Positions 1 through 38,541 of a stretch of 64,000 bases of DNA are shown here, in pieces. Source of the stretch: an uncultured Chromatiales bacterium (GTDB taxonomy: Bacteria; Pseudomonadota; Gammaproteobacteria; SZUA-140); the NCBI GenBank assembly GCA_964437335.1, contig CAYTGL010000002.1, positions 66,734-130,733 of the forward strand. The letters run 5' to 3'. How positions within the stretch are numbered: position 1 is the first letter of the stretch; every line of letters begins with the position of its first letter. The notes under the pieces are model-generated. The model saw only the letters and a program-made list of their open reading frames with translations. It ran no database searches and was not told where the DNA came from. Position numbers and translations under genes: made by a program.

Positions 1-641
<641 letters not shown>

Positions 642-700
642 TCAAGCAAGCCGCTCCCCTGCGATTCAAGCGACACACAACCGTAGTATACCCCGCGCTC

Positions 701-4652: not shown

Positions 4653-4734
4653 CCAAATAAGAATCAAATGGTTGGCGATCTTTATCGGGCCAGATCCGTT
4701 TGCTTGTCACCCTATCGATCGCCAGAAGCCGGTG

Positions 4735-4822
4735 ATCGTCCCGTTACGGGACTGTCGGCCGCAGGGATGCGGCCGTCAAGCGTACAGGGACGTATTCACA
4801 GCGTGTCCCGTAACGGGACGAC
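4735..4822. repeat. Palindromic intergenic repeat, copy 2 (outer stem gtcccgttacgggac / gtcccgtaacgggac)
   Basis: Same core as copy 1 with 2 substitutions, and a different outer inverted repeat. Lies between radC and rpmB. Confidence 0.8.
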
Positions 4823-4942
4823 CACCGGCTTCCCCACGGGTGCTAACGATAAAACGGATCCGGCCCCCGCAATCTTGTCCTTCCAGGCCCGATCTGATAT
4901 AAAGGCACGTTCAGATTTAGCTACCGGTTTGGAGTTGCTACG

Positions 4943-5191: not shown

Positions 5192-5347
5192 ATGCGTGAC
5201 AAGATCAAGCTGGTCTCTTCCGCCGGAACGGGACACTTCTACACGACCGACAAGAACAAGCGCACGATGCCGGACAAGTTCGAGATCAGGAAATTCGATC
5301 CCGTCGCCCGCAAACATGTGATCTATAAAGAATCCAAAATGAAATAA
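5192..5347 (+). CDS. rpmG: 50S ribosomal protein L33
   Basis: 51-aa ORF (too short for the track) [51 protein letters not shown], 12 nt after rpmB. Confidence 0.9.
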
Positions 5348-5350
5348 ACA

Positions 5351-5383
5351 AAAAACCCGCCTCAGGCGGGTTTTTTGTTTTCA
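5351..5383. terminator. Rho-independent terminator (bidirectional) between rpmG (+) and argJ (-)
   Basis: aaaaaacccgcctcaggcgggttttttgttttc: a GC hairpin flanked by an A-run and a T-run. Confidence 0.8.
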
Positions 5384-20967: not shown

Positions 20968-22346
20968 CGTCCGCGCTCTTCATAGTTGCTGAACATGTCG
21001 AAGCTCGCGCAGGCCGGTGACAGCAGTACACTGTCGCCGGGTTCGGCGAGTTGCGCCGCGCGCTCGACCGCCGCGCGCAGGTTAGGCGCATGTTCGGGCA
21101 CGACTGCGCCTGCCAGGGCCTGCTCGATGCGGCCGGCATCCGCGCCGATCAGCACGACCGCACGCGCCTTGCCGACCAGCGCGTCCCGCAACGGCGAAAA
21201 GTCCTGGCCCTTGCCGACACCGCCGGCGATCAGCACCACCTTGCCATCGAGGCCTTCAATCGCCGCCAGCGTCGCGCCGACATTGGTGCCCTTCGAATCG
21301 TTGTACCAGGCAACGCCACGGCGCTCGCCAAGCCACTGGGTGCGATGCGGCAGTCCCGGGAAATAGCGCAGTGCGCCCAGCATCGCGTCCAGCGGCAAGC
21401 CCGCCGCCGAACCGAGTCCCAGCGCCGCAAGCGCGTTGACGGCATTGTGCCGGCCGCGGAGATGCATCTCCGCGGCCGGCATCAGCAGCGCGCCGCCCCG
21501 GGCCAGCCAGGTCGCCCCGCCCTGCATTACAAGGCCGTATTCCATGTCGCCCGGCGGCGCACCGGCACCGAATGTCACGCGATCGCCGTCTCCCGGAATA
21601 TCGCCGCTGACCGCGGGATCGTCGCGATTGACGACACGCACGCACTGCCCGCGGTAGATGCGCAGTTTCGCCGCCAGATATTCATCCAGGTCGAGATAGC
21701 GGTCGAGATGGTCCGGAGAGATGTTCAGGATCGTTGCTGCGCGAGCCTCGAGACTGAAGGTGGTCTCGAGCTGGAAACTCGAAAGCTCGAGGACATACAG
21801 ATCCGGCGCTCCGTCCCCGAGCAGATTGAGTGCCGGCGTGCCGATATTGCCGCCGACGCGAACCTCGCGTCCGGCGGCGCGCGCCATTTCGCCGACCAGC
21901 GCGGTCACGGTGCTTTTGCCGTTCGAGCCGGTGATCGCAATCACCGGCGCATCGGCGCAGCGCGCGAACAATTCGATGTCGCCGATGATCGGGCGGCCGA
22001 GGCGACGCGCCCGGTCGAGGCAGGGATGGCGCAGCGAAAGACCCGGGCTGACGACGACCTGGTCGCAATGGTCGATCGCATCCATCGAGAAACCATCGAC
22101 GAACAACGGTACGTCGGGCAGCTCGCGACGCGCCGCCTCGAGCTGCGGCGGGGCCGCGCGACTGTCGGTCACCGCAACCTCCAGACCGAGATGGTGCAGG
22201 AAGCGCGCGCACGAAAAACCAGTCATGCCCAAGCCGATGACCAAGGTCCGGCCGGCAATTCCGAGCCGGGCGCGCAGAGCCGCCGTCGAGGGGATTTGGC
22301 CGCTCATGTCGATCGTCCTGTGTTCAGCGCCGCGTACCTCCATCAT
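20931..22346 (-). CDS. murD: UDP-N-acetylmuramoylalanine--D-glutamate ligase
   Basis: Mur ligase motifs. Start set at the ATGATGA overlap with the mraY stop; alternative ATG at 22307. Confidence 0.9.
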
Positions 22347-30158: not shown

Positions 30159-30506
30159 AAGGAGGGAGCCGGCCTGTAAGCCGGGTTCTGTCGGGGACAG
30201 TCATTCATCTGGGTCGCGCGTCGCCGCGCGCCTCGAGCGACCTACCCGGGGACAGCGCGGGCCGCGCTATCGTCCCCCTATTTGGTCTTGCTCCGGATGG
30301 GGTTTGCACTGCCGCCGCGTGTTGCCACCGGCGCGGTGCGCTCTTACCGCACCATTTCACCCTTACCCGCGTTGCCGCGGGCGGTATATTTTCTGTTGCA
30401 CTTTCCGTCGGCTCGCGCCGCCCAGGCGTTACCTGGCATCCTGCCCTGCGGAGCCCGGACTTTCCTCCACGCCCACAGGCGCAGCGACTGTCCGGCCGAC
30501 TCCCGA
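30159..30506 (-). ncRNA. rnpB: RNase P RNA (bacterial type A)
   Basis: Reverse complement contains GGAGGAAAGTCCGGGCTCC, AAGGGTGAAATGGTGCGGTAAGAGCGCACC and ACAGAACCCGGCTTA, in E. coli M1 RNA order. P1 stem 5' GGGAGUCGGCC pairs with 3' GGCCGGCUCCC. Confidence 0.9.
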
Positions 30507-30566: not shown

Positions 30567-31415
30567 TCATCGCCGCCGAATGCCCAGACCCAGCTCGTAC
30601 AGGCGGTTTCTGCCGATGCCGGTCAGTTTCGCGGCGAGCACGGCGGCCTGCTTCAGCGGCAGTTCCTCGAGCAGAATCGCGAGCATGCGGCGCGCATCGG
30701 CCTCGTCGATGGCCGCTGATTCGTCGGCACCGTGGACGATAATGACGATCTCACCCTTTTGTTGCATCGGGTCCTGCCGCGTCCAATCGAGCAATCCACC
30801 CAGCGTGGCGCGCCTGATGGTTTCATGCAGCTTCGTGATCTCTCGCGCACAGGCCGCCTCGCGTTCCGCGCCGAACACATCGACCATGGCGGCGAGCGCC
30901 GCGAGCGCGCGGTGCGGGGCCTCGTAGAACACCAGCGTGCGCGGCTCGTCACGCAATTGCTCGAGTCGTTCCCGGCGATGGGCGGCACGCGACGGCAGGA
31001 AGCCTTCGAACACAAAGCGGTCAGACGGCAGGCCGGACACCGACAAGGCGGCGACCAGCGCCGAAGAACCGGGTATCGGGGAAACACGTATCCCGGCGTC
31101 ATGGGCGGCGCGCACGAGGTGAAATCCCGGATCGCTGATCAACGGCGTACCGGCGTCGCTGATCAGCGCGACGGAGTCACCACGCTGCAGACGCTCGATC
31201 AGGCGCGGCGTCAGTTCGCGCTCGTTGTGGTCGTGCAACGACAGGCACGGCGTCGCAATGCCGAAGTGACGCAGCAGTTGTCCGCTGCGACGGGTATCCT
31301 CGGCGGCGACGACATCGACCTGACCGAGCACCTCGAGCGCTCGCTTGGTGATATCACCAAGATGTCCGATAGGAGTGGCGACGATGTACAATATTCCCTG
31401 TTTTCCGATTGACAC
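30567..31415 (-). CDS. rsmI: 16S rRNA (cytidine1402-2'-O)-methyltransferase
   Basis: 282 aa tetrapyrrole-methylase fold, LYIVATPIGHLGDIT...AAEDTRRSGQLL. Confidence 0.93.
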   Translation of the reverse strand: MSIGKQGILYIVATPIGHLGDITKRALEVLGQVDVVAAEDTRRSGQLLRHFGIATPCLSLHDHNERELTPRLIERLQRGDSVALISDAGTPLISDPGFHLVRAAHDAGIRVSPIPGSSALVAALSVSGLPSDRFVFEGFLPSRAAHRRERLEQLRDEPRTLVFYEAPHRALAALAAMVDVFGAEREAACAREITKLHETIRRATLGGLLDWTRQDPMQQKGEIVIIVHGADESAAIDEADARRMLAILLEELPLKQAAVLAAKLTGIGRNRLYELGLGIRRR

Positions 31416-31462
31416 CTTCGATCCCCGTTCGGATACTTGAAGCCTTATGTCGTCTGCGCTCG

Positions 31463-31586
31463 TTTAAGGAGTTCGGAAGGCGGCGGTGATTACCTGACGG
31501 GACACGCTGTGAATACGTCCCTGTACGCTCGACGGCCGCATCCCTGCGGCCGACGGTCCCGTCAGGTAATCACCGCCGCCTTCCGG
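31463..31586. repeat. Palindromic intergenic repeat, copy 3 (reverse orientation, ~28-bp outer stems)
   Basis: gaaggcggcggtgattacctgacgggac-[core rc]-gtcccgtcaggtaatcaccgccgccttc, in the rsmI/lpoA divergent region. Confidence 0.8.
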
Positions 31587-31615: not shown

Positions 31616-33481
31616 ATGTGTAAACCACAAGCGACACGCCATTTCATCGCGCTGATCATAGCACTCGTGATCGGGGGCTGTGCGGTCGGGCCGCCGGAAA
31701 AAGCCAGTGCGCCTTCCGCGAACGAGTCGTTGCGGCAGGCCGGGACGGCCCTGCAGCGCGCGGATTTCGAAGTCGCCGCCCGTTATTATCTCGAGGCCGC
31801 CGAAAGCGCCGATGAGGAGACGCGCCCCGATTACCAGTTGCTGGCCGTTTCGGCGCTGCTGCGGGGCAACCATATCGAATATGCGCAGCGCGTCATGGAG
31901 CGCATCGACACCAATCGCCTGGACCGGCTCGGAGAACTCCGCTGGCGAATCAGTACGGCGCGCATCGCGCTGGCGCAGAACCGGCCGGAGCAGGCATTGA
32001 ATGTCCTGCCGGCCGCGACCCCGGACGGGGTCCCGGACCCGTTGCGGGCCGAGGTCCATGAACTGCGCGCGGAGGCCCGCCATCGCACCGGCAATCCGCT
32101 CGAGGCGGCGCGCGAACACGTGCTGCGTGAAAGCTTTCTGCGCCCCGAAGACGAAGGCGAACGGAGACGCAGCCAGCAGGCGATCTGGCAGACCCTGAAC
32201 CTGCTGCCGGATGAGGTGCTGCGGCGGGAACTCGCACCTCCCCCGGATCCGTTCGATGGCTGGCGCGAGCTGACGCTGATCGCGCGTTCGACACAGACCG
32301 GGACGATCGATATATCCGGCATGATCAACGGCTGGCGTCAGCGTTATCCATCGCATCCGGCCTCCGCGAATATCATCGAACTCGTGCTCGCGCGGCAGCG
32401 GGAACAGGCCGGGCGTCCAATGCATATCGCGGTGCTGTTACCGCACAGCGGCCCGGCTGCCGAAAGCGCCGGCGCGCTGAGGGACGGCTTCATCGCCGCG
32501 CATTTCCACCGTGAAAACCGCGCCTACATGCCGGAGATCCGCTTTTACGACACCGGCCCCGACCCCGCGACGGTCACGCTTACTTATATGCAGGCGGTCG
32601 AGGACGGCGCCGACCTCGTGGTCGGACCGCTGACGCGCCAGGCCGTCACGCTGCTCGCCGAGAGCGGACGCATCAGCGTGCCGACGCTGACCTTGAATTA
32701 CAGCGAATCGAACCGCGGGACCGATCCCCGGCTGTTCCAGTTCGGCCTCGCGCCGGAAGACGAGGCGCGCCAGGTCGCGCAACGCGCGTGGCTGGACGGC
32801 CACAATCGTGCGCTCGCGATCGTCCCCCGGGACGAATGGGGACAGCGGGTGGCCGAGGCTTTCCGCACGGAGTGGGAGCAGTTCGGCGGCAAGCTGCTCG
32901 AGATTGAAACCTACCCGTCCGAGATCAACGATTTCTCCGATCAGATCCGGCGGCTTCTCAACCTCGACGAAAGCGAGCAACGCCATCGCGATCTCGCGAG
33001 GACCCTGCAACAGCCGCTGCAACACGAGCCGCGTCGCCGCCATGACGCCGACTTCATCTTCATGGCGGCCTTTCCGCGCCAGGCGCGCCTGATCCGGCCC
33101 CAGCTCGAGTTCCACTTCGCCGCGCAGTTACCGGTGTACAGCACCTCGCATGTGTTTACCGGAAAACGCAACCGCGACGACGACCGCGACATCGACGGCG
33201 TTATCTTCTGCGATCTCCCGTGGCTGCTGGAGGATACGAAACGCGCGGTCAAGCGTGACATCGAACGGGTATGGCCCGAACGCTCGGCGCAGTATGTCCG
33301 TTTCTATGCGCTGGGCGTCGACGCTTACGATATCATTCCGTACCTGAACAACCTGCGACTGTTCCAGTACGAACGCTACCAGGGGGCAACCGGCGTCCTG
33401 CAACTCGGCGACACCAATCGTGTCTACCGTCAACTGCCCTGGGCGCGGTTCAACAACGGGCTGCCCCGCCCCTATAATTGA
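31616..33481 (+). CDS. lpoA: Penicillin-binding protein activator LpoA (lipoprotein; TPR N-domain plus periplasmic-binding-like C-domain)
   Basis: 621 aa with lipobox LVIGGC. Divergent from rsmI and followed by yraN, as in the E. coli yraLMNP locus. Confidence 0.85.
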   Translation: MCKPQATRHFIALIIALVIGGCAVGPPEKASAPSANESLRQAGTALQRADFEVAARYYLEAAESADEETRPDYQLLAVSALLRGNHIEYAQRVMERIDTNRLDRLGELRWRISTARIALAQNRPEQALNVLPAATPDGVPDPLRAEVHELRAEARHRTGNPLEAAREHVLRESFLRPEDEGERRRSQQAIWQTLNLLPDEVLRRELAPPPDPFDGWRELTLIARSTQTGTIDISGMINGWRQRYPSHPASANIIELVLARQREQAGRPMHIAVLLPHSGPAAESAGALRDGFIAAHFHRENRAYMPEIRFYDTGPDPATVTLTYMQAVEDGADLVVGPLTRQAVTLLAESGRISVPTLTLNYSESNRGTDPRLFQFGLAPEDEARQVAQRAWLDGHNRALAIVPRDEWGQRVAEAFRTEWEQFGGKLLEIETYPSEINDFSDQIRRLLNLDESEQRHRDLARTLQQPLQHEPRRRHDADFIFMAAFPRQARLIRPQLEFHFAAQLPVYSTSHVFTGKRNRDDDRDIDGVIFCDLPWLLEDTKRAVKRDIERVWPERSAQYVRFYALGVDAYDIIPYLNNLRLFQYERYQGATGVLQLGDTNRVYRQLPWARFNNGLPRPYN

Positions 33482-36957: not shown

Positions 36958-37139
36958 ACGACACATCTCCCCGGTATTATTATCGCAGTGCGAGTCAGGG
37001 AATCTTACCACAATCGCGGCAGGCGCGTCATAAACGAGTCTCATTCGCGTGTACCTGGCGCAGTCTGGCCCCATGGGATCAGCCGGCAGCGCAAGCTGGA
37101 TGAATACTGCTAGAATGGCCGCCAGTTGTGAACGGTGGA

Positions 37140-37259
37140 ATCGCGCCCGGGGCGGGTTACTTCGTTACGGGACACGCTGTGAATACGTCCCTGTACGCTC
37201 GACGGCCGCATCCCTGCGGCCGACGGTCCCATAACGAAGTAACCCGCCCCGGGCGCGAT
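37140..37259. repeat. Palindromic intergenic repeat, copy 4 (reverse orientation, ~33-bp outer stems with one mismatch)
   Basis: atcgcgcccggggcgggttacttcgttacggga-[core rc]-tcccataacgaagtaacccgccccgggcgcgat, in the sspA/TraB divergent region. Confidence 0.8.
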
Positions 37260-37302: not shown

Positions 37303-38541
37303 ATGACGTCCGATACCGCAGTCGCCGCTCTCATCGGCGACACCGAGCCGTACTTCACGATCGAACATGATGGCCGGCGGCTTACCGTGCTCGGGACCGC
37401 GCATATCTCGCGAACCAGCGCCGACAAGGTCACGGAGCTGATCGACCAGGGCGGCTATGATGCCGTCGCGATCGAGTTGTGTCCGAGCAGGCACAATGCA
37501 CTGATGAATCCCGACAACCTGTCGCGGATGAACCTGTTCGACGTATTCCGGCAGAAGAAGGCGGCGATGGTCGCGGCGAGCCTGGCGCTGGCCGCGTATC
37601 AGCAGCGCATGGCGGAACAGCTCAATATCAGACCGGGCGCGGAGATGCTGGCGGCGATCGATGGCGCGCGGGCGCGGCATCTGCCGGTGCTGCTGATCGA
37701 TCGCGAAATCGCCATCACCTTGCGCCGCGTCTATCGCAATGTGCCGTGGTGGCAGCGTCTGAATCTGGTATCGGGACTGCTGGCAAGCCTGGTGACGTCG
37801 CGCAAGATCTCCGCGGAGGAAATCGAACGCCTCAAGGAAGGCGATATCCTCGAGTCGACGTTTTCGCAGTTCGCCGAGCAGTCGAAAGATCTCTATATCC
37901 CGCTGATCGACGAACGGGACCGCTACATGTCAGCGCGACTGGTCAAGGAATTCGGCAATGGGAATCATCGCAACATGCTCGCAGTCGTCGGCGCCGGGCA
38001 TTTGCGCGGGATCAGCGGCTATTTACCCGAATACCTTGAATCTTCGATCCTGATGCCGCCGGACAAGACGATCAGCGATCTCGACGAGGTGCCGCCGCCG
38101 AGCCGCTGGCCGAAGTTGATTTCCTGGGTGGTCGTGCTGCTGATCCTGACCGGCTTCGCCATCGGATTTTCTCGCGGCCCGGAACTCGGCCTGCGCATGG
38201 TGATCGACTGGATCGTCATCAACGGCGGACTCGCCGCGCTCGGCACGATACTGGCCGGCGGGCATTATCTGACGGTCATAGGCGCGTTCGTGGCGGCGCC
38301 GCTGACGTCACTGAATCCGATGATCGGGGTCGGGATGGTGACCGCGGTCATCGAGACCTGGGCGCGCAAGCCGCAGGTCGGGGATTTCGCGCAATTGCGC
38401 AAGGACACCGCGAGCTTCAGCGGCTGGCGCCGCAACCGCGTGGCACGCACACTGCTGGTCTTTCTGTTCAGCACCCTCGGCTCGGCGACCGGCACCTATC
38501 TGGCCGGCTTCCTGATCTTCCAGCGCCTGATGCAGCAGTGA
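37303..38541 (+). CDS. TraB/GumN family protein with a C-terminal membrane domain
   Basis: 412 aa with the GTAHIS motif typical of TraB/PrgY/GumN. Confidence 0.8.
   Translation: MTSDTAVAALIGDTEPYFTIEHDGRRLTVLGTAHISRTSADKVTELIDQGGYDAVAIELCPSRHNALMNPDNLSRMNLFDVFRQKKAAMVAASLALAAYQQRMAEQLNIRPGAEMLAAIDGARARHLPVLLIDREIAITLRRVYRNVPWWQRLNLVSGLLASLVTSRKISAEEIERLKEGDILESTFSQFAEQSKDLYIPLIDERDRYMSARLVKEFGNGNHRNMLAVVGAGHLRGISGYLPEYLESSILMPPDKTISDLDEVPPPSRWPKLISWVVVLLILTGFAIGFSRGPELGLRMVIDWIVINGGLAALGTILAGGHYLTVIGAFVAAPLTSLNPMIGVGMVTAVIETWARKPQVGDFAQLRKDTASFSGWRRNRVARTLLVFLFSTLGSATGTYLAGFLIFQRLMQQ

Follow-up and report, generated by a model that had tools for sequence, protein, structure and literature searches.

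The window analysed here is a stretch of 64,000 nucleotides from an uncultured Chromatiales bacterium (GCA_964437335.1, contig CAYTGL010000002.1, positions 66,734 to 130,733 of the forward strand). It holds four copies of an element in which a long stem (P1) closes an apex with two small hairpins (P2 and P3). The element is a divergent subfamily of TwoAYGGAY (RF01731, Csr-Rsm clan), about 110 nt long and not annotated by Rfam, and it forms an old repeat dispersed between genes. Its 52-nt core, with 0 occurrences expected by chance, is found four times in the 64 kb, at 577-628 (+), 4753-4804 (+, with 2 mismatches), 31504-31555 (-) and 37174-37225 (-). The strand given is the one on which the apex loops read GGA, called the GGA strand below. 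Gene identities were taken from Pfam-labelled orthologous loci, and the bit scores are those of covariance model R1, described in the next section.

549-656, plus strand: copy 1, whole element, 114.8 bits; between the algC stop and the argB start; algC and argB are minus-strand genes, with the GGA strand antisense to both
549-576 and 629-656: arms of copy 1, 28 nt, 93% complementary
577-628, plus strand: apex of copy 1, P2 loop at 587-592, P3 loop at 610-615
4725-4832, plus strand: copy 2, whole element, 120.7 bits, with the compensated pair U1:A26; 72 nt past the radC stop and upstream of rpmB, both of which run in the same sense as the element
4725-4752 and 4805-4832: arms of copy 2, 28 nt, 96% complementary
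4753-4804, plus strand: apex of copy 2, P2 loop at 4763-4768, P3 loop at 4786-4791
31474-31585, minus strand: copy 3 (the focal copy), whole element of P1 arms and 52-nt apex, 124.6 bits; in the divergent spacer from the rsmI start at 31415 (minus) to the lpoA start at 31616 (plus)
31556-31585, minus strand: P1 5' arm of copy 3 in GGA-strand orientation, CGGAAGGCGGCGGTGATTACCTGACGGGAC, 30/30 complementary to 31474-31503
31474-31503, minus strand: P1 3' arm of copy 3, 30 nt, 100% complementary to the 5' arm
31530-31555, minus strand: hairpin P2 of copy 3, CGUC-GGCCGC-AGGGAU-GCGGCC-GUCG, with an internal U·U and the hexaloop AGGGAU at 31540-31545
31514-31525, minus strand: hairpin P3 of copy 3, UAC-AGGGAC-GUA, with the hexaloop at 31517-31522
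31504-31513, minus strand: 3' tail of copy 3, UUCACAGCGU, whose GC would pair with the GC just 5' of P3 as a short helix enclosing P3
37140-37259, minus strand: copy 4, whole element, 121.9 bits, with one U·G wobble on the GGA strand; between sspA and a TraB/GumN-family gene, the latter starting at 37303
37140-37173 and 37226-37259: arms of copy 4, 34 nt, 97% complementary
37174-37225, minus strand: apex of copy 4, P2 loop at 37210-37215, P3 loop at 37187-37192

All four copies are intergenic, and the Pfam-labelled orthologues confirm the four sites (algC-argB, radC-rpmB, rsmI/lpoA and sspA/TraB-GumN family) that had been named in the original prediction. A core present four times, twice in each orientation, was likewise found as predicted, at 577 and 4753 (+) and at 31504 and 37174 (-). 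Every core is flanked exactly by inverted arms, with a distance of 52 nt between the arms in all four copies. The arms had been described as perfect palindromes; inverted arms are indeed present at all four sites, but the 13-bp and 15-bp stretches listed are parts of 28-bp arms with 1-2 mismatches. In the same way the core of ~52 nt does recur, but the conserved unit really covers 58 nt, consisting of GAC + core + GTC.

The four arm pairs are the four longest local inverted repeats of the window. No long palindrome without a core was found by the inverted-repeat search of the 64 kb, and no fifth copy was found in the window by R1 with the filters off. P2 is the same in the four copies save for U1:A26 of copy 2, where C1>T and G26>A change both partners of a single P2 base pair.

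The 58-nt unit is identical at the cores 577-628, 31504-31555 and 37174-37225, although about half of the arm positions have diverged. The orthologue of copy 3 in L134 (9856-9968) differs from it at ~6 core positions; L-numbers denote loci fetched from genomes carrying elements or orthologous genes. The identical cores of the window could reflect a genome-specific optimum or concerted evolution of the core.

Data sets and covariance model

A 20-mer from the apex, GTACAGGGACGTATTCACAG, was scanned against 185,579 species genomes, and at least 119 stretches across Gammaproteobacteria were found. Among the matches listed, Marinobacter made up the majority, and Halomonas/Vreelandella, Microbulbifer, Alcanivorax and Saccharospirillum were also present. 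Further carriers were Pseudohongiella, Woeseiaceae, Thiohalobacter, Acidiferrobacterales, a metagenome-assembled genome (MAG) of Lysobacterales and gammaproteobacterial MAGs. Orthologous loci were fetched via homologues of RadC and LpoA.

An ungapped seed alignment of 21 sequences with a hand-drawn structure (A1) was the source of R1, and 135 distinct sequences were placed in a larger alignment (A2). In ~0.9 Mb of fetched loci R1 gave 165 matches (136 + 29), 46 of them without the exact 20-mer. The anatomy is nearly universal: a left arm of 21-34 nt, a hairpin with variable stem and a (C)A-N-GGA-N(G) loop, AGCGUACAGGGACGUAUUCACAGCG, and the complementary right arm, with 52-54 nt between the arms in most copies of the family.

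Fetched loci often held 2-4 copies per 8 kb. The density is 4 copies in the 64-kb window, and the extra copies in the fetched loci amount to ~1 per 20 kb; extrapolation from these densities suggests on the order of a hundred copies per genome. BLAST with the element found nothing in E. coli genomes, plasmids or phages; the family is absent from E. coli and sits on chromosomes.

A single 'viral' match was seen, at 150-400 of L001 (IMG/VR viral genome record UViG 3300044223_000078). It is a copy of the Alcanivorax type, truncated to P3, tail and right arm. Tandem GTGGGAGCG REP-like repeats are fused to it, and it adjoins a tRNA gene.

Covariation and the foldable strand

In A1, 96.8% of the cells are paired and 35 of the 42 pairs show double changes (27 of 28 in P1 and 8 of 10 in P2). 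None of 500 shuffles was as good, and controls with slid alignments gave 36-45% paired. Compensatory changes had been put forward as a check of the original prediction, and they are found: 40 of 42 pairs are double-changed in A2, including 28 of 28 in P1, with 93.2% of the cells paired, and the pairs that differ in L134 are compensated as well.

For the strand comparison the arms were scored by Watson-Crick pairing only, which means that G·T and A·C were penalised equally. On the GGA strand the mismatches of P1 were 67 of the G·U type versus 8 of the A·C type, and 94 versus 16 in all model matches. After collapsing copies with similar arms, the numbers were 83 versus 15 (p = 1.4e-12). The arms of a palindrome read alike on both strands and the two transitions are equally expected, so that the asymmetry must stem from the asymmetric apex. 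The large excess of the G·U type implies that it is the GGA strand that folds as single strand. These wobble counts show that selection preserves the single-strand fold of the GGA strand.

Loops of the apex

The original prediction placed a GNRA tetraloop in the core. This was replaced, after a census of the loops of 157 copies, by the hexaloop A-N-G-G-A-N closed by C-G, which is presented by P2 as well as by P3. The P2 loops counted were AUGGAU (54), AGGGAU (44), AGGGAC (11), AAGGAU (6) and others including AUGGAC. In A1 the motif C-A-n-G-G-A-n-G (CAnGGAnG) is invariant in P2, and it had not been imposed by the search pattern. A conserved (C/U)GUC precedes P2, and in A1 T33 is invariant and C34 nearly so.

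The register of P3, UAC-AGGGAC-GUA, was set from copies without the 20-mer, in which the stem covaries to CAC/GUG, CCC/GGG and UCC/GGA. The helix enclosing P3, GCx...x'GC, also encloses a 5-nt bulge, as read by eye with no formal count. For x:x', the main type has G·A and the variants have C:G, A:U or CC:GG, again by eye.

The two GGA motifs of the apex lie ~23 nt apart. GGA occurs 2.75 times per apex versus 0.25 for TCC, and outside the 20-mer 1.75 times per apex versus 0.9 in shuffles. Insertions of 40-120 nt were found inside P2 at the following positions.

L007, 6256-6409: insertion inside P2
L015, 6727-6894: insertion inside P2
L097, 1521-1674: insertion inside P2
L115, 3550-3681: insertion inside P2
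L059, 2602-2719: insertion inside P2
L067, 420-582: insertion inside P2

Four of five apexes with large insertions (L015, L097, L115 and L059) hold 4-7 GGA, mostly as extra ANGGAN hairpins, and the fifth (L067) holds 2 GGA and 3 TCC, with an inverted P3-like piece. Subfamilies without a P2 stem retain 3-4 GGA, as in Marinobacter, where the arrangement is GCGGAGCC-AUGGAUG-GCGGAGCC, and in the Alcanivorax and Halomonas types.

Comparison with Rfam families

Rfam models were run at their gathering thresholds (43 bits for RF01731 and 70 bits for RF02770) and also in E-value mode. At the gathering thresholds nothing was found at the window copies, nor at the copies in 18 loci. In E-value mode miRNA precursors were also matched, and these matches were discarded as generic long-hairpin matches.

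The model of TwoAYGGAY, RF01731, matched in full length on the GGA strand of copies in L037, L078 and L092 with 41.8, 38.5 and 37.2 bits, which is below 43; the copies matching are those with AUGGAY in both loops. The consensus of this model is an outer stem of ~30 bp around two hairpins with CAUGGAUG loops. A sequence-only hidden Markov model scored against the Psychromonas seeds of TwoAYGGAY gave a weak signal of 12 bits, and the link therefore rests on architecture, loop motifs and near-threshold covariance scores. The original prediction had considered that the core might belong to a known family; this turned out to be partly the case, the element being a relative of Rfam's TwoAYGGAY with window copies below the Rfam thresholds.

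TwoAYGGAY was described from Clostridia, Gammaproteobacteria and gut metagenomes as an RNA with two AYGGAY loops (Weinberg et al. 2010, PMC2864571), in which P1 is 'often very large (e.g., 24 base pairs...)' with few mismatches (supplement of the same paper). It is placed in Rfam clan CL00106, 'Csr-Rsm protein binding', and CsrA binding has been predicted for it from two matches to the CsrA motif (Gardner and Eldai, PMC4333381). Its seed alignment includes several copies from one Psychromonas genome, one of them containing GUACAGGGACGUA, and itself has CAGGGAU and ACAGGGACGUA loops.

The element shares with TwoAYGGAY the two A-Y/R-G-G-A-Y hairpins, the very long P1, the occurrence in Gammaproteobacteria and the lack of a fixed gene association, and in Psychromonas TwoAYGGAY is multi-copy as well, with GUACAGGGACGUA of one seed identical to that of the element. 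The window arms are 28, 28, 30 and 34 bp long and 93-100% paired, with helices supported by covariation. The window copies differ in having AGGGAU and AGGGAC loops, that is R for Y at position 2, and in the short P3 and the fixed 3' tail. What is new with respect to TwoAYGGAY is the dispersal at high copy number among many marine and soil Gammaproteobacteria, the strand asymmetry of wobbles, the head-to-head pairs described below and the mode of evolution.

The sole Rfam match to copy 3 in E-value mode was Ysr224 (RF02770), with 30.5 bits and E = 2.3e-5 on the strand opposite to GGA. Its scores were 30.5-31.8 bits, far under the threshold of 70, and no copy in the 18 loci reaches this threshold. 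The reverse complement of the Ysr224 consensus is hairpin-AGGGAU-hairpin, CGAGCC-UACAUGGAUGUA-UUUACGGCG, with the same order of P2, P3 and tail. In contrast to the element, Ysr224 is modelled on the opposite strand with an outer stem of only 6 bp, and it is described as a temperature-responsive small RNA (sRNA), neither as a repeat nor as a ligand of CsrA. It is among the sRNA families with most instances per genome (PMC9029176), which suggests that Ysr224 is a repeat.

Inheritance and loss of copies

The arms had originally been regarded as unrelated between copies, the opposite of a MITE (a transposable element of the miniature inverted-repeat kind). This view could not be upheld. The inner 5-9 nt of the arms are conserved, with ACGGGAC in 3 of the 4 window copies, and the arm consensus of the family is TTCC-RRR-AC at the inner nine positions, GGG at 17-19 and a G-rich 5' arm. 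Conserved outer arms, which had been named as speaking against the original prediction, are found in Woeseiaceae and Alcanivorax, whereas the arms in the window do differ. In these two groups the arms are nearly alike among copies, and one subfamily has an outer TTCATGAAC inverted repeat, which points to recent MITE-like amplification in some lineages.

The subfamily of the Woeseiaceae type (L006, L026, L046, L068, L089, L113, L120 and 19300-19490 of L134) has arms that are almost the same and, outside them, an additional inverted repeat, GGATTATTCATGAACG ... CGTTCATGAATAATCC. This subfamily resembles a MITE of ~230 bp carrying the GGA apex.

Orthologous spacers were compared for the four window copies. 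The rsmI-lpoA spacer of L134, where LpoA is 79% identical, has a full orthologous copy 3 in the same orientation, from which 4 arm pairs and 1 P2 pair differ, all compensated. In the closer L130 (LpoA 89%) the same spacer retains only the right arm and half of P2, with an internal deletion of ~90 nt. The algC-argB spacer of L124 has the left arm of copy 1, and the core and right arm are gone. The sspA-TraB spacer of L130 has only ATCGCGCCCCGGGCGCGAT, a palindrome of 19 nt that corresponds to the outermost 9 bp of the two copy 4 arms. Copy 2 is absent from the radC-rpmB spacer of L122 and L124, where a different palindrome is found. Furthermore, three compensated pairs differ between the Marinobacter orthologues L041 and L045.

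Short direct repeats could be read from the sequences at the hairpin base, namely CCCTTG/CCCCTG at copy 1 and CGCCC/CGCCC at copy 4. The 'empty' states of L124 and L130 are what slippage between such repeats would leave, and they are therefore best read as deletions and not as targets before insertion. At rsmI-lpoA, a full copy in the distant L134 and a half-deleted one in the closer L130 mean that the copy was lost and not gained. The copies are old and vertically inherited at fixed intergenic sites, and they are lost by internal deletions that leave remnants of the arms. The stems drift by compensatory substitution while the loops and the segment of P3 and tail stay fixed.

These results bear on an explanation offered in the original prediction, in which a mobile core of 52-58 nt inserts into palindromes or generates them, for example by inverted duplication of the flank, the arms being derived from the target. 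The L124 spacer with the left arm of copy 1 but neither core nor right arm, the L130 palindrome made of the outer 9 bp of both copy 4 arms, and the sister genomes without copies 1 and 2 would all be expected in this case. Nevertheless we regard it as highly improbable, since both 'empty' sites match slippage between direct repeats at the hairpin base, the order of events at rsmI-lpoA is one of loss, a shared arm consensus with a G-rich 5' arm is unexpected of random targets, and the window has no long palindromes lacking a core. The orthologue in L134 and the remnant in L130 largely refute an element that targets or creates palindromes.

In sister genomes a GTAG-type REP-like palindrome, GGGGTCAGAGTAGAC-TTCG-GTCTACTCTGACCCC, was seen in the radC-rpmB and argB-algC spacers; none was found in the window. 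This suggests turnover of repeats at the same intergenic sites.

L122, 10680-10712 and 6555-6569: GGGGTCAGAGTAGAC-TTCG-GTCTACTCTGACCCC sites
L124, 10684-10716: site of the same palindrome
L123 and L125: sites of the same palindrome

Transcripts and the long duplex

The sRNA list of Alcanivorax dieselolei B-5 (PMC9788540, Supplementary file 2) contains at least 3 transcripts overlapping elements. sRNA761554 and sRNA2064319 cover whole elements in the anti-GGA direction, the 5' end of sRNA2064319 falling exactly at the foot of the stem, and sRNA3332759 starts inside one element and ends just past P3 of the next.

Transcripts that cover elements, one with its 5' end at the stem base, are in line with a generic mRNA hairpin of the kind known from REP, ERIC, YPAL and Correia repeats. 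In this case the P1 duplex would be functional either way, as an RNase III site, a barrier to 3'-exonucleases or a transcription roadblock, and the apex would be a relic. P1 measures 27-34 bp and is 93-100% paired in almost every copy, and it folds equally well on both strands: for copy 3 the folding energy is -89.3 kcal/mol on the GGA strand (z = -11.7) and -87.1 on the opposite strand. Copies also lie a few tens of nt from gene ends and between operon cistrons (e.g. trpD-trpC) in either orientation. A duplex with a relic apex leaves unexplained that the hexaloops and the segment of P3 and tail are far more conserved than the stem across orders, that GGA is 11-fold more frequent than TCC, and that wobbles are tolerated on one strand only, and we consider it decidedly unlikely.

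De Gregorio et al. are said to have described ERIC, YPAL and Correia/NEMIS as intergenic palindromes of 100-170 nt whose co-transcription yields long RNA hairpins with an effect on mRNA processing. Those families have conserved terminal inverted repeats and target-site duplications, whereas in the element the apex is conserved and the stems drift. Target-site features had been proposed as a check, and no target-site duplication was found at the elements; the outer arms of the window copies also differ from one another, as those of a MITE would not.

Head-to-head pairs and likeness to REP

Of 18 element pairs less than 400 nt apart, 16 have their 5' arms turned towards each other, a head-to-head arrangement (p = 2e-8). 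The spacers of the head-to-head pairs are 35-295 nt long and the arrangement is independent of the direction of the flanking genes. No motif or promoter was found in these spacers, and likewise no conserved flanks.

Loci with head-to-head pairs: L022, L027, L032, L037, L058, L059, L062, L078, L086, L091, L095, L096, L099, L107, L109, L118

The pairs resemble the doublets of REPIN and BIME repeats. They would fit a repeat of the repetitive extragenic palindromic (REP) or REPIN kind. Such a repeat would act, or be kept or moved, in the form of single-stranded DNA from one of the strands, and a RAYT-like HUH enzyme or some other protein that binds hairpins would recognise it. The GGA loops would in that case serve recognition of the DNA, and their likeness to CsrA sites would be coincidental. 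The element occurs in many copies, strictly between genes and on chromosomes, and plasmids and phages gave no match. Its gene-independent orientation together with the strand-specific tolerance of G·T is what a strand-specific process on single-stranded DNA predicts. Additionally, the subfamilies of Woeseiaceae, Alcanivorax and L134 are MITE-like, with conserved arms and the outer TTCATGAAC inverted repeat, and the (C/U)GUC before P2 recalls the 'CGTC-tagged' REPs (PMC3733652). The GTAG/CGTC REP survey does not cover these genera.

The GGA strand also has a weak bias to negative GC skew, 88:61, which can be read in favour of such a process; as a replication-strand bias, 59:41 is weak. Among the open reading frames between and beside elements in ~1 Mb of loci no transposase or RAYT was seen, as judged from translations by eye with no profile search, and what lies between neighbouring copies are housekeeping genes. 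The arms of paralogues from one genome are very unlike each other, with no sign of recent copying in the window genome, and orthologous copies change in place by compensated pairs, which implies a constraint on each locus. The extra ANGGAN hairpins and the near-threshold scores for the Csr/Rsm clan fit an RNA ligand better. On balance we find a DNA repeat of this kind unlikely.

In form, the element and REP, REPIN or BIME repeats have in common the abundance of intergenic hairpins, the tolerance of G·T in stems, inverted doublets, a long vertical persistence and perhaps the (C/U)GUC tag by P2. They differ in that REPs are simple hairpins of 20-40 nt with a sequence conserved within the genome, while the element is of ~110 nt with three helices, an asymmetric apex of two hairpins and copy-specific stems.

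Predicted binding of CsrA

Of the explanations offered originally, a structured RNA or protein-binding site is the one favoured by the evidence. Our best explanation overall is that RNA of the GGA strand forms a two-loop CsrA/RsmA site on a long stem; we propose this tentatively, giving it somewhat less than an even chance. The RNA of the GGA strand would be the active form. The long, near-perfect P1 (27-34 bp) closes the apex, where P2 and P3 each expose their A-N-G-G-A-N hexaloop in a three-way structure, and the two loops may constitute a bipartite high-affinity site for one CsrA/RsmA dimer. A transcribed copy might titrate CsrA or recruit it locally, like the minimal two-site unit of CsrB/RsmZ. 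P1 would be the clamp presenting the apex, and as a duplex of at least 28 bp it may also act as an RNase III or exonuclease-barrier element.

Work by Dubey in 2005, Schubert in 2007 and Mercante in 2009 reportedly gave the consensus RUACARGGAUGU / (A/U)CANGGANG(U/A) of selection experiments (systematic evolution of ligands by exponential enrichment, SELEX) and of RsmE, and the bridging of two sites 10-63 nt apart by one dimer. The loops of the element agree with the CsrA/RsmE consensus. Hexaloops of this type with GGA are also found in the hairpins of CsrB, CsrC and RsmX-Y-Z, and expanded copies of the element have 4-7 GGA. Those sponges differ from the element in being single-copy genes with promoters dependent on GacA/UvrY, terminators and 5-22 sites, whereas the element has only two sites in each unit, neither its own promoter nor its own terminator, a long closing stem and, by extrapolation, ~a hundred dispersed copies. 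CLIP-seq (crosslinking and immunoprecipitation with sequencing) found that CsrA recognises A(N)GGA in apical loops (PMC5207318). We infer CsrA binding from these motifs and structures and hold the prediction to be well motivated.

Several observations weigh against an active RNA of the GGA strand or against its binding by CsrA. Two promoter-like sites lie close to window copies.

31409-31437, plus strand: promoter-like TTGACA-17-GATACT with 10/12 matches, kept in L130 and L134
685-712, minus strand: promoter-like site upstream of copy 1, conserved in relatives

The first would transcribe copy 3 opposite to the GGA strand, as lpoA leader, which speaks against simple co-transcription in sense, and the second would read copy 1 on the UCC strand, as argB leader. 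The same anti-GGA direction seems to hold for TGCTAGAAT upstream of copy 4 (~37108-37116, +), a site identified by eye that points to the TraB/GumN-family gene. No conserved promoter or terminator was found flanking the elements, the information content being zero just outside the arms, and no terminator-like site was found downstream of them. The transcripts of A. dieselolei that overlap elements are mostly anti-GGA among those listed, and Rfam's Ysr224 is modelled on the anti-GGA strand. RF01731 gave no match to copy 3 even at E <= 10. No csrA gene was found in the window or in the fetched loci, and its presence in the organism is assumed. Finally, the searchable literature contains no CsrA-binding test for the element family or for TwoAYGGAY.

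The orientation with respect to the flanking genes, judged with two home-made gene callers, is random (++ 32, -- 37, +- 28, -+ 14), and among copies that run antisense to the genes on both sides the wobble asymmetry is just as marked, 24:5. Taken together, these two results mean that the choice of the selected strand cannot be explained by simple co-transcription with host genes, and they too count against the proposal. A simple cis-acting mRNA element is opposed by both results as well, and also by the lack of conserved promoters or terminators outside the arms, by the promoter-like sites that read the opposite strand and by the mostly anti-GGA transcripts of A. dieselolei.

A further-reaching form of the CsrA/RsmA-site proposal is a distributed CsrA/Rsm network, which we consider doubtful. 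Some hundred two-site clamps would be made as GGA-strand RNA regardless of which way the neighbours run, acting as a genome-wide sponge and/or wiring many operons into the Csr regulon. The apex would possibly be freed by RNase III cleavage of the 28-bp stem, and the head-to-head doublets would ensure one sense copy from either side. No paper linking CsrA with REP, MITE or interspersed repeats was found in the searchable literature. If such a network were true, an interspersed repeat of bacteria would gain a new role, and the TwoAYGGAY class its first function. If the loops bind CsrA/RsmA, much of the Csr regulon or its buffering in the marine Gammaproteobacteria Marinobacter, Halomonas, Alcanivorax and Microbulbifer would reside in repeats and not in a few sponge genes.

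The TwoAYGGAY class is far more widespread than its Rfam annotation. The element family is a clean natural case of long stems kept by compensatory change, and model R1 and its alignment could seed a proper Rfam family.

Other features

Further features were noted in the window, one per line below.

30161-30503, minus strand: RNase P RNA class A, 329.9 bits
62271-62346, minus strand: tRNA-Thr(UGU)
5346-5380: bidirectional terminator-like palindrome after rpmG, AAACAAAAAACCCGCCT-A-AGGCGGGTTTTTTGTTT
21448-21481: perfect palindrome of 17+17 nt, TGCCGGCCGCGGAGATG/CATCTCCGCGGCCGGCA, inside long open reading frames, scoring 20 bits with R1 purely as a hairpin

Unrelated to the elements, the fetched loci also hold a Guanidine-I riboswitch at 2990-3100 of L092 (86 bits) and, at 3594-3877 of L018, a match to 5_ureB_sRNA (98.9 bits). 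In the sister genomes form I RuBisCO and cbbQ/cbbO adjoin sspAB (L132, 16548-21677; L134, 16616-21842). The window has the TraB/GumN-family gene where the sister genomes have RuBisCO, and synteny breaks at the spacer of copy 4. The clade is probably autotrophic.

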